DNA from: a virus
Lineage: Duplodnaviria; Heunggongvirae; Uroviricota; Caudoviricetes
DNA: 64,000 nt
IMG/VR virus record: IMGVR_UViG_2690316068_000001
Location: 1-64,000 of that record
Strand: one strand, 5' to 3'
The position numbers and the translations under genes were made by a program. Below the pieces are notes generated by a model that was not told the DNA's origin, did no database searches, and saw nothing but the letters and a program-made list of their open reading frames with translations. This document shows positions 60,551 to 62,056 of the stretch, piece by piece (positions within the stretch are counted from its first letter, which is position 1; each line of letters starts with the position of its first letter).

Positions 60551-60907
60551 TTATGACCGTAAATTATTAGCGGATTTTAAGCCATATTCACCGTTGTAGA
60601 AATTACTCATGTTCCATTCATTAGGAAGTTCTTTTCTGTCCAATGTATAGTGGCGCACGATATAACGATCTTCATCTTCTTCGATGGACAGGCGGACATA
60701 GCCAATGTGAATCACCGATACGGGCGGTGTTCGTATTGCATAGATGTCGCGGAGATATACCGGCAGCTCGACAAATGCATCAGGTGCATCTGTGATGCTC
60801 GTTTTTTCACAGTATTCATATAACGCATCGTTGATATCGTTAAGAGATTCATGATCGTATATTTCCAGGTAATTACCGCGATCACGATGGTACTCGATTT
60901 TAGCCAT
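60551..60907 (-). CDS. Hypothetical protein (AT-rich gene)
   Basis: 118-aa ORF; abuts the upstream ORF stop. Confidence 0.45.
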   Translation of the reverse strand: MAKIEYHRDRGNYLEIYDHESLNDINDALYEYCEKTSITDAPDAFVELPVYLRDIYAIRTPPVSVIHIGYVRLSIEEDEDRYIVRHYTLDRKELPNEWNMSNFYNGEYGLKSANNLRS

Positions 60908-61492
60908 TCAAAATCCCCTGTTATCGTTTTGCATTTCTCTAATCCGGTTCAGAACTACTTCGTGCTGGACTTGGATAGCGGCTTTTTCGTTTTCAAGCCG
61001 GGCAATAGACATCTCTAATTCTTTGCTGTACCAGGCGAGCTGGGCCAGGTTCATCCGGTTGTGGTCGAGAGTTGGAGACACTTCGACGCGATCCCTTTCT
61101 TCCTGCTTTAATGAGAAGAGATTTATCTCATCCCTTGAGGAAAATTCAGCAACAATTTCTTGTTGATGATCCGGTCGCTGCGGCATCCTCGCCAGTATAA
61201 ATGGCGGTTCTTTTGAAAACATGAATGTCGGTTCAGACCGTGTTTTTACCCAGCTTGCCTGCTGTCTTTCGGCAAGTTCACAGGCTTCATCATAGTTATC
61301 TGCCAAACAAAGCACGGATGGACGGTCCCACGCCCCACCATTCAGACAATAAACTACAATTTTCCCGTCAGGTTGTGTAACCCCATATGGATGGTCCCAC
61401 CAGGCGTCCAGCTGAGCTTTAGAGCGTTTCTCGTTAGGAGTGCAGTCAAAATTTTTGGGCAATACAGGATCGAGAGGAATGCGATTAGGCAT
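60908..61492 (-). CDS. Hypothetical protein with C-terminal coiled coil (AT-rich gene)
   Basis: 194-aa ORF divergent from humD. Confidence 0.45.
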   Translation of the reverse strand: MPNRIPLDPVLPKNFDCTPNEKRSKAQLDAWWDHPYGVTQPDGKIVVYCLNGGAWDRPSVLCLADNYDEACELAERQQASWVKTRSEPTFMFSKEPPFILARMPQRPDHQQEIVAEFSSRDEINLFSLKQEERDRVEVSPTLDHNRMNLAQLAWYSKELEMSIARLENEKAAIQVQHEVVLNRIREMQNDNRGF

Positions 61493-61627
61493 AGCTAATT
61501 CCTTATTAACTGATTGGCAACGAGGTTACGCTGATCCGTTGGTGATGAATAGTAGCAAAGAGCACAAAATCATCAGCGGTGGTTGATGTACGTAACGCGT
61601 TTGCACCAAAGGTGTCTCTTTAATGTA

Positions 61628-61647
61628 TACTGTATAAATGAACAGTA
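61628..61647 (+). promoter_or_regulatory. LexA (SOS) box
   Basis: tactgtataaatgaacagta = CTGT-N8-ACAG, 20 bp upstream of humD start. Confidence 0.8.
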
Positions 61648-61666
61648 TTATTGAGGTGAAAACGCT

Positions 61667-62056
61667 ATGGGCTTCCCTTCTCCTGCGGCGGATTATGTTG
61701 AAAGCCGAATTTCTCTTGATCAGCAACTAATCAGGCATCCATCAGCAACCTACTTCATGCGGGCAGCTGATAGCCATCACCGTGAGGGAATATTGCAGGG
61801 TGCTTTGCTGGTGGTTGATTCCTCGCTTACTCCGGTTGATGGTTCTCTGCTTGTGTGCGCTATGGAGGGTGAATATCGCATAAAGAGATACAGGAAGTAT
61901 CCGCGCCAGCACCTGGAGGATTTAAGCACCGGGAAGAAAGAGGCGTTACCAGTAGATGACGATGGATGCACGGGCAGTAATGCTGTTTTTGGTGTGATCA
62001 CTCATGTCATCAATGATGCCCGAAGTGGGGAGTTTGATGATTGTCCGGTTATTTAA
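61667..62056 (+). CDS. humD: UmuD-like protein (processed UmuD-prime-type, no LexA-like cleavage region)
   Basis: 129 aa; S24 peptidase-like fold motifs (…GDSM-equivalent region, LVVDSSLTPVDGSLLV…). Confidence 0.75.
   Translation: MGFPSPAADYVESRISLDQQLIRHPSATYFMRAADSHHREGILQGALLVVDSSLTPVDGSLLVCAMEGEYRIKRYRKYPRQHLEDLSTGKKEALPVDDDGCTGSNAVFGVITHVINDARSGEFDDCPVI

Follow-up and report, generated by a model that had tools for sequence, protein, structure and literature searches.

The window analysed here is a stretch of 64,000 nucleotides (positions 1 to 64,000 of the IMG/VR virus record IMGVR_UViG_2690316068_000001) from a phage-plasmid of the P1 family, P7/SJ46 type. On its minus strand lie two contiguous genes, lxr (60908-61492, 194 amino acids; named upf94.2 in phage P7) and upf93.6 (60551-60907, 118 amino acids), which are transcribed away from humD. 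A non-essential cargo operon of the plasmid-type establishment or host-interference kind fits this locus better than the alternatives considered and is put forward as a tentative reading. The operon would encode two independently mobile, small acidic proteins of the type that plasmids, integrative and conjugative elements (ICEs) and phage-plasmids carry among their establishment and host-interference genes. We infer such a role together with a protein-binding mechanism: Lxr, with its N-terminal domain (Lxr-N) as the functional unit, would bind a host component that is conserved and belongs to DNA metabolism or immunity, and it would be neither an enzyme of a known class nor a classical DNA-binding regulator. 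The gene upf93.6 would be a separate cassette placed downstream of lxr and co-translated with it.

Distribution and genomic context

Members of the Lxr family were detected by tblastn on 894 plasmids of PLSDB. Stand-alone N-domain proteins of 130-140 amino acids are 55-65% identical, with the range of the domain reaching from E. coli to Bradyrhizobium, and share 26 invariant positions, including the motifs CLNGG.WDR and QRPD. Their hosts include Klebsiella, Pseudomonas, Xanthomonas, Burkholderia, Bradyrhizobium, Rhodopseudomonas and Sphingobium, among others, and the N-domain alone is the conserved unit. Full-length Lxr with the coiled coil also occurs on large IncFIB/IncHI1B plasmids of Klebsiella, and on IncHI1B plasmids the homologue is located in backbone regions. 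In many K. pneumoniae plasmids of the IncFIB/IncHI1B type the homologue aligns as two pieces and is annotated as a 143-amino-acid N-domain protein (L123, 13980-14571); the coiled-coil part appears to be frameshifted off in these copies.

ICEs and plasmids of Rhizobiales show the gene order relaxase-oriT-traC-traD-traG-SNase-methyltransferase-LxrN-WGR-DUF4326-DUF736-ArdC-DUF7007, with Lxr-N about 4 kb from oriT on the traCDG side and the neighbouring methyltransferase being an orphan. Such markers occur within 5 kb in 24 of the 58 species-level Lxr-N loci. Genes for anti-defence and establishment are concentrated in the leading regions of plasmids (PMC11541004, Samuel et al. 2024), and gene exchange among phage-plasmids, plasmids and ICEs is to be expected of phage-plasmids (PMC10879196).

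Homologues of both Lxr and Upf93.6 lie among the establishment and leading-region genes of conjugative elements (ArdC, SSB, PsiB and orphan methyltransferases). Like these genes, both are small, acidic, dispensable and common to plasmids, ICEs and phage-plasmids; unlike the characterised establishment genes, they have no sequence or fold relationship to any of them. P1-like elements have no conjugative entry, and the role would there act at infection, induction or plasmid maintenance. A counter-defence or establishment role would agree with the sites that the homologues occupy on conjugative elements and is plausible. The level of identity of Lxr-N across proteobacterial classes, together with ratios of nonsynonymous to synonymous substitution rates (dN/dS) of 0.1-0.26, points to a conserved target and not to a fast arms race.

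Several observations weigh against the establishment or host-interference assignment. None of the searched markers was found in 34 of the 58 Lxr-N genome loci, and neither protein resembles a known family of anti-defence, anti-SOS or anti-restriction proteins. Conservation as high as this is unusual for inhibitors engaged in an arms race. The contexts are heterogeneous (HEPN/Toprim in SSU5-like elements, Mrr_cat for one Upf93.6 homologue, the IncHI1B backbone), and the placement on the leading side in the Rhizobiales elements is a putative one, drawn by analogy with other relaxase systems. Two further points are the label 'DNA-binding protein' that NCBI gives to the family and a weak βββα resemblance to DNA-binding folds of the AP2/integrase type.

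The initial annotation had considered a defence or counter-defence module. The counter-defence half is compatible with the sites of the homologues, whereas the defence half was not supported. A defence or superinfection-exclusion module carried by the prophage would agree with the variable accessory region of a temperate element and with some homologues located beside HEPN/Toprim, or beside Mrr_cat, PLD and HEPN. It is nevertheless improbable: neither protein has a PADLOC match, no nuclease, ATPase, sensor or other enzymatic domain is recognisable, the genes occur singly and not as a fixed pair, purifying selection and high conservation extend across classes, and the homologues are typical of transfer and establishment regions of conjugative elements.

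A P1-like relative with the lxr-hot arrangement (L090, 68-745) has a Tad2-like gene (PF11195, anti-Thoeris-type) and a dUTPase just past doc. The Tad2-like gene suggests that this neighbourhood collects counter-defence cargo.

A 47-kb plasmid of broad host range, known from Pseudomonas, Xanthomonas, Burkholderia, Brucella and Enterobacterales, encodes Lxr-N in an operon with overlapping stop and start codons, preceded by a gene for a 66-amino-acid protein and followed by a resolvase, with SNase and ArdC nearby. The layout of these three genes, with a serine resolvase as the last one and an SNase-like nuclease close by, resembles the multimer-resolution operons of the RK2 parCBA type; in contrast, P1-like elements and most loci of Lxr homologues have no adjacent resolvase. 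In one copy of the plasmid (L005, 1-7400) a mer transposon is inserted just upstream of the operon. As would be expected of res-site-hunting transposons, the insertion hints at a res site within the promoter region of the operon. The 66-amino-acid protein is encoded again, with 52-58% identity, on plasmids of Klebsiella and Citrobacter, 1-5 kb away from Lxr homologues (L003, 7790-7990; L069, 7676-7870; L011, 8249-8443; L076, 11909-12106) and is absent from the window.

The resolvase operon bears on a second explanation, in which Lxr is a DNA-binding accessory (an autoregulator, an architectural protein or a recombination cofactor) acting as a coiled-coil oligomer, with upf93.6 as an unrelated passenger. 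The overlap of the Lxr-N gene with the start of the serine resolvase speaks for it, as would the upstream mer transposon if it marks a res site. Most homologues lack a resolvase neighbour, which speaks against it, and the protein features described below make such a role quite unlikely.

Protein architecture and search for relatives

The AlphaFold2 model of Lxr (mean predicted local distance difference test score, pLDDT, of 88) consists of a conserved N-terminal tail, a β-β-β-α-β-β-α domain reaching to about residue 130, a linker and a long helix of residues 149-191. The C-terminal coiled coil noticed in the initial annotation is thus recovered in the model. The N-terminal domain (residues 1-130; 61103-61492, minus strand), in which the two invariant motifs are located and which is widely conserved, is predicted to be a novel α/β fold and the functional unit of Lxr. 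The C-terminal helix (60920-61048, minus strand) is a probable coiled-coil oligomerisation module with weak matches to the coiled coil of DUF7491. It is present only in P1-like homologues and in some homologues on Klebsiella plasmids, and these versions are probably oligomeric. PHROGs include N-only and C-only Lxr families besides the full-length one. The model of Upf93.6 (pLDDT 77) has the order ββαβββ. Both families are acidic, with a median isoelectric point (pI) of 5.0 for Lxr and 4.8 for Upf93.6.

Scans of both proteins and of all members of both family alignments against Pfam, NCBIfam, PADLOC and PHROG returned only uncharacterised PHROGs and sub-threshold noise. PADLOC yielded no family at E<=1 for either protein, searches of the PDB by sequence and profile yielded nothing below E=0.1, and Foldseek against the PDB yielded nothing at E<=0.001. 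Structure prediction combined with Foldseek, which the initial annotation had proposed as a check, left both Lxr and Upf93.6 without a significant structural neighbour. Pfam, NCBIfam, PDB sequences and PDB folds contained no characterised anti-restriction, anti-CRISPR or anti-SOS relative, and homology to structural or housekeeping proteins was found for neither gene. In a profile search with the N-domain alignment, the best 120 of 287 matches were close family members only, with no Pfam-annotated relatives among them. A literature search turned up no experiments on lxr, upf94.2 or upf93.6.

Among these results are those that bear on a DNA-binding role of Lxr. The NCBI family name and the core βββα order, which resembles domains of the AP2/integrase type (Foldseek 1gcc, E=1.5, probability 0.33; not significant), would favour it, as would the positions of Upf93.6 homologues, which often follow regulator-like genes. 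Against this, none of 66 Lxr family members has a Pfam match to a DNA-binding domain such as helix-turn-helix (HTH), ribbon-helix-helix or AP2, the family is acidic, and the NCBI label could be traced to no NCBIfam model. Judged from these searches, the product label 'DNA-binding protein' lacks support. Comparison of Lxr-N with the AP2 domain of AtERF1 by hhalign gave a probability of 2.4%, and direct profile comparison indicated that Lxr-N and Upf93.6 are unrelated.

Accessory nature and separability of the pair

PdcB at >=90% identity was found on 682 PLSDB plasmids and HumD at >=90% on 640; Lxr at >=80% was found on 191 and Upf93.6 at >=90% on 135. The presence/absence pattern across P1-like genomes is patchy, with lxr carried by about 28% and upf93.6 by about 20% of P1-like plasmids. 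Among 22 phage records matching the region, seven contain both genes, five contain lxr only and the rest contain neither. In the set of 5426 complete E. coli genomes, 101 contain most of the module. Published work describes the pap-lxr interval as a region that varies among P1-like elements (PMC6906374; PMC9603915), and lxr was scored as non-essential in a genome-wide CRISPR interference (CRISPRi) screen of P1 (PMC10695390). Both genes are accessory, optional and separable cargo; their accessory nature, as first proposed from the sequence, is borne out by the variable region, the carriage, the dispensability of lxr and the lack of structural or housekeeping homologues.

The family of Upf93.6 is small: a set of 1.84 billion proteins contains 23 representatives. 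A P1-like element of Salmonella that lacks humD has a gene for a 58%-identical Upf93.6 following lxr, and sister elements have the same lxr without upf93.6. The elements in which lxr occurs without upf93.6 include P1, L089, L091 and L092. Lone homologues of Upf93.6 are found on an IncN plasmid, after DUF932-ssb-korA(TrfB) in the stbABC-proximal region; on Salmonella plasmids, after genes for 81 and 320 amino acids; after a Mrr_cat gene with PLD and HEPN also nearby; and after an HTH-like gene for 136 amino acids. A relationship of this last gene to Lxr was ruled out by direct comparison. The lxr-upf93.6 pair is recurrent, and it is not obligate because each gene occurs widely without its partner; an obligate two-gene module, as first described, was not sustained.

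The same observations bear on a type II toxin-antitoxin or addiction pair, which would consist of two small, translationally coupled genes by phd-doc. The abutting TGA and ATG codons, the small sizes and the plasmid location would suit such a pair. Its probability is very low: lxr is alone in P1, L089, L091 and L092, homologues of upf93.6 stand by themselves on plasmids of the IncN group and of Salmonella, neither product matches a toxin or antitoxin family, a natural in-frame Lxr-Upf93.6 fusion exists, and CRISPRi knock-down of lxr was harmless.

LexA box and lxr promoter

The divergent gene humD (61667-62056, plus strand), located outside the module, encodes a UmuD'-like protein (Peptidase_S24, E=5.7e-9; PHROG 811, UmuD-like; P1/P7 annotation). 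It is separated from lxr by a spacer of 174 bp (61493-61666), which the initial annotation had estimated at about 170 bp, and the spacer contains, as described there, a LexA box. This box (61628-61647) is a perfect TACTGTATAAATGAACAGTA and is the humD operator, the same site being annotated in P1 and P7. Located 20 bp ahead of the humD start codon, it overlaps humD promoter candidates and is 136 bp from the ATG of lxr. A candidate extended -10 element of lxr, TGcTACTAT (61549-61557, minus strand), was found by consensus scan 57 nt ahead of the lxr start codon, at a distance of about 75 bp to the LexA box. In the same scan, only a weak promoter-like match on the lxr side overlaps the LexA box. 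Inspection by eye of the sequence preceding lxr showed no match to the P1 late promoter (-22 box).

In RCS47 and D6, hot is located directly upstream of humD, lxr is absent, and homology to the window resumes at 61619 with the LexA box kept. The sequence upstream of lxr differs in the Salmonella lineage, where it contains an inverted repeat and lacks a LexA box. At 54 other loci of the Lxr family, the 300 bp upstream contain no LexA box of the γ or α type. The box is linked to humD and uncoupled from lxr. Because it stays with humD when lxr is absent and is missing at other lxr homologues, LexA control would not be a property of the Lxr family, and for lxr it is suggested by position. SOS control of the pair is not supported, and the name of lxr, 'LexA regulated function', appears to lack support. 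In the Salmonella lineage the perfect inverted repeat TTTGTTTGTCAACACAAACAAA overlaps promoter-like hexamers (L075, 3270-3345; also in L091 and L092) and may be an operator; a DNA-binding Lxr would be in keeping with this repeat.

These data bear on an SOS-controlled DNA-damage function. Under that explanation one LexA box would regulate lxr together with humD, and Lxr, like DinI or PsiB, would act as a modulator of RecA, Pol V or replication. DinI and PsiB are small, acidic, LexA-regulated modulators of RecA, belonging to mobile elements or the SOS regulon. Lxr is likewise small and acidic, and in P1/P7 its gene adjoins that of a UmuD' homologue and has a LexA box close by. The perfect box in a divergent spacer that is 98% conserved in P1, P7 and L089 supports this explanation, as do the neighbours accessory to DNA replication and repair, namely humD and, in P1, hot. 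Homologues of Lxr-N are located between a RecA/exonuclease/gp32/Pol III module and a HEPN/Toprim gene in SSU5-like phage-plasmids and about 4 kb from umuDC and tus on a Citrobacter plasmid, which also speaks for it. However, the box is adjacent to humD and kept with it where hot replaces lxr, it is missing together with humD in Salmonella P1-like elements with lxr, it lacks linkage to the other loci of the family, and the best lxr promoter candidate lies at a distance from it. In addition, no homology to DinI or PsiB was detected and no sequence or fold similarity to DinI, PsiB or RecX was found among solved structures. The SOS explanation is regarded as unlikely.

Identity and gene features

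The 1.8 kb around the locus share 99.8% identity with Salmonella phage SJ46, 99.5% with several phage-plasmids named 'P1' and 98.9% with phage P7. For lxr itself the DNA identity is 99.8% to SJ46 and 98.9% to P7, where it is annotated as upf94.2 or lxr. In the record of P7 the 194-amino-acid ORF (open reading frame) is upf94.2 and the 118-amino-acid ORF is upf93.6; the counterpart of the former in P1 is lxr (190 amino acids, YP_006568). At the protein level, Lxr of the window is 93% identical to P1 Lxr and about 99% to that of P7, and Upf93.6 (pI 4.8) is 99-100% identical to the proteins of P7 and SJ46. Lxr matches PHROG 6164 over residues 1-194 (E=3.5e-135) and Upf93.6 matches PHROG 5797 over its full length (E=3.8e-77); both PHROGs are labelled as function unknown. 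The locus is accordingly identified by its similarity as the P7-type allele of an already catalogued, uncharacterised P1/P7 locus. The description of the two products as unknown proteins stands for their function, with no match to a characterised family, and does not stand for their existence, which was already annotated. Annotations of the genes and of the LexA box in P1 and P7 go back two decades; the locus itself is ordinary and the pair is optional.

The position of lxr, divergent from humD within a P1-like backbone, agrees with the arrangement in P1, and the genes, their position and the LexA box are the same in the window as in P1/P7. P1 differs in lacking upf93.6, whose place is taken by hot (a θ-subunit homologue) on the opposite strand. 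P7 has IS903 a few hundred bp past the end of upf93.6, whereas the window (about 60290), like SJ46, lacks it. Homology between P1 and the window begins only at about 60958, within the last 17 codons of lxr, so that a mosaic breakpoint between P1 and P7 types lies inside the 3' end of the gene. The location of the breakpoint indicates that the P7-type tail of Lxr (...EMQNDNRGF) arrives with the upf93.6 cassette. In the Salmonella lineage the tail of Lxr is identical with or without upf93.6.

The coordinates, strand and contiguity of both ORFs given by the initial annotation were found to be exact. The TGA stop of lxr (60910-60908) immediately adjoins the ATG of upf93.6 (60907-60905), and both ORFs are in one frame. 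A Shine-Dalgarno-like AGGGGA (60919-60914) is located 6 nt upstream and belongs with the stop and start codons to the junction (60905-60919, minus strand), and lxr is preceded by a Shine-Dalgarno-like AAGGAA (61499-61504, minus strand). The identical junction was found in 29 IMG/VR contigs. A read-through Lxr-Upf93.6 fusion, with TGA changed to TGG in frame, occurs in public assemblies (cluster P0059, 58 members); TGG was present at none of the 29 IMG/VR junctions. The dN/dS of lxr is 0.09-0.26 in both halves of the gene, and positive selection was rejected on these values. Because homologues are conserved and lxr shows such ratios, both ORFs are taken to be genuine genes.

The GC content is 47.4% for lxr, 41.5% for upf93.6 and 39.7% for the intergenic spacer, with a window mean of 47.2%. 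The module is thus not AT-rich as first described; only upf93.6 and the spacer are mildly so. A scan of the region with Rfam gave no matches and no repeats were found. The 98% conservation of the spacer among P1, P7 and L089 includes the window. Between the window (61483-61676) and L089 the spacer is 98% identical though the Lxr proteins are only 80% identical (dS 0.53), a sign of mosaic recombination whose boundary falls where lxr begins.

A stretch of 32 nt in lxr (61219-61250 in the minus-strand sense; protospacer-adjacent motif, PAM, at 61251-61253) is 100% identical to the iap-proximal (oldest-end) spacer of a type I-E CRISPR array. About 1018 chromosomal matches to this stretch were obtained in the 5426 complete E. 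coli genomes, and eight of the nine chromosomal matches listed were annotated as CRISPR. In the window, P7 and L089 the protospacer has 0-2 mismatches and a non-canonical 5' PAM, CTG (the Ser80 codon); in P1 and the Salmonella lineage it has four mismatches and a canonical ATG PAM. This pattern looks like CRISPR escape.

Implications

Under the establishment or host-interference reading, Lxr-N may found a protein family that is widespread on mobile elements, and may neutralise or hijack a highly conserved host function, for which RecA/SOS signalling, a replisome component and an immune signal are examples, with Upf93.6 as a second, independent inhibitor coupled to it by P7-type phages; this extension is speculative and rather doubtful. 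The family, spread over the 894 plasmids, α- and β-proteobacterial ICEs and both P1-like and SSU5-like phage-plasmids, has no Pfam entry and no solved relative. What the present analysis adds to the existing annotation is the uncoupling of the LexA box from lxr, the separability of the pair and the recognition of Lxr-N as a widespread conserved family. Lxr-N is found alike on phage-plasmids, broad-host plasmids, large Klebsiella resistance plasmids and rhizobial ICEs, and knowing its target might show what such mobile elements jointly need for their establishment or maintenance.

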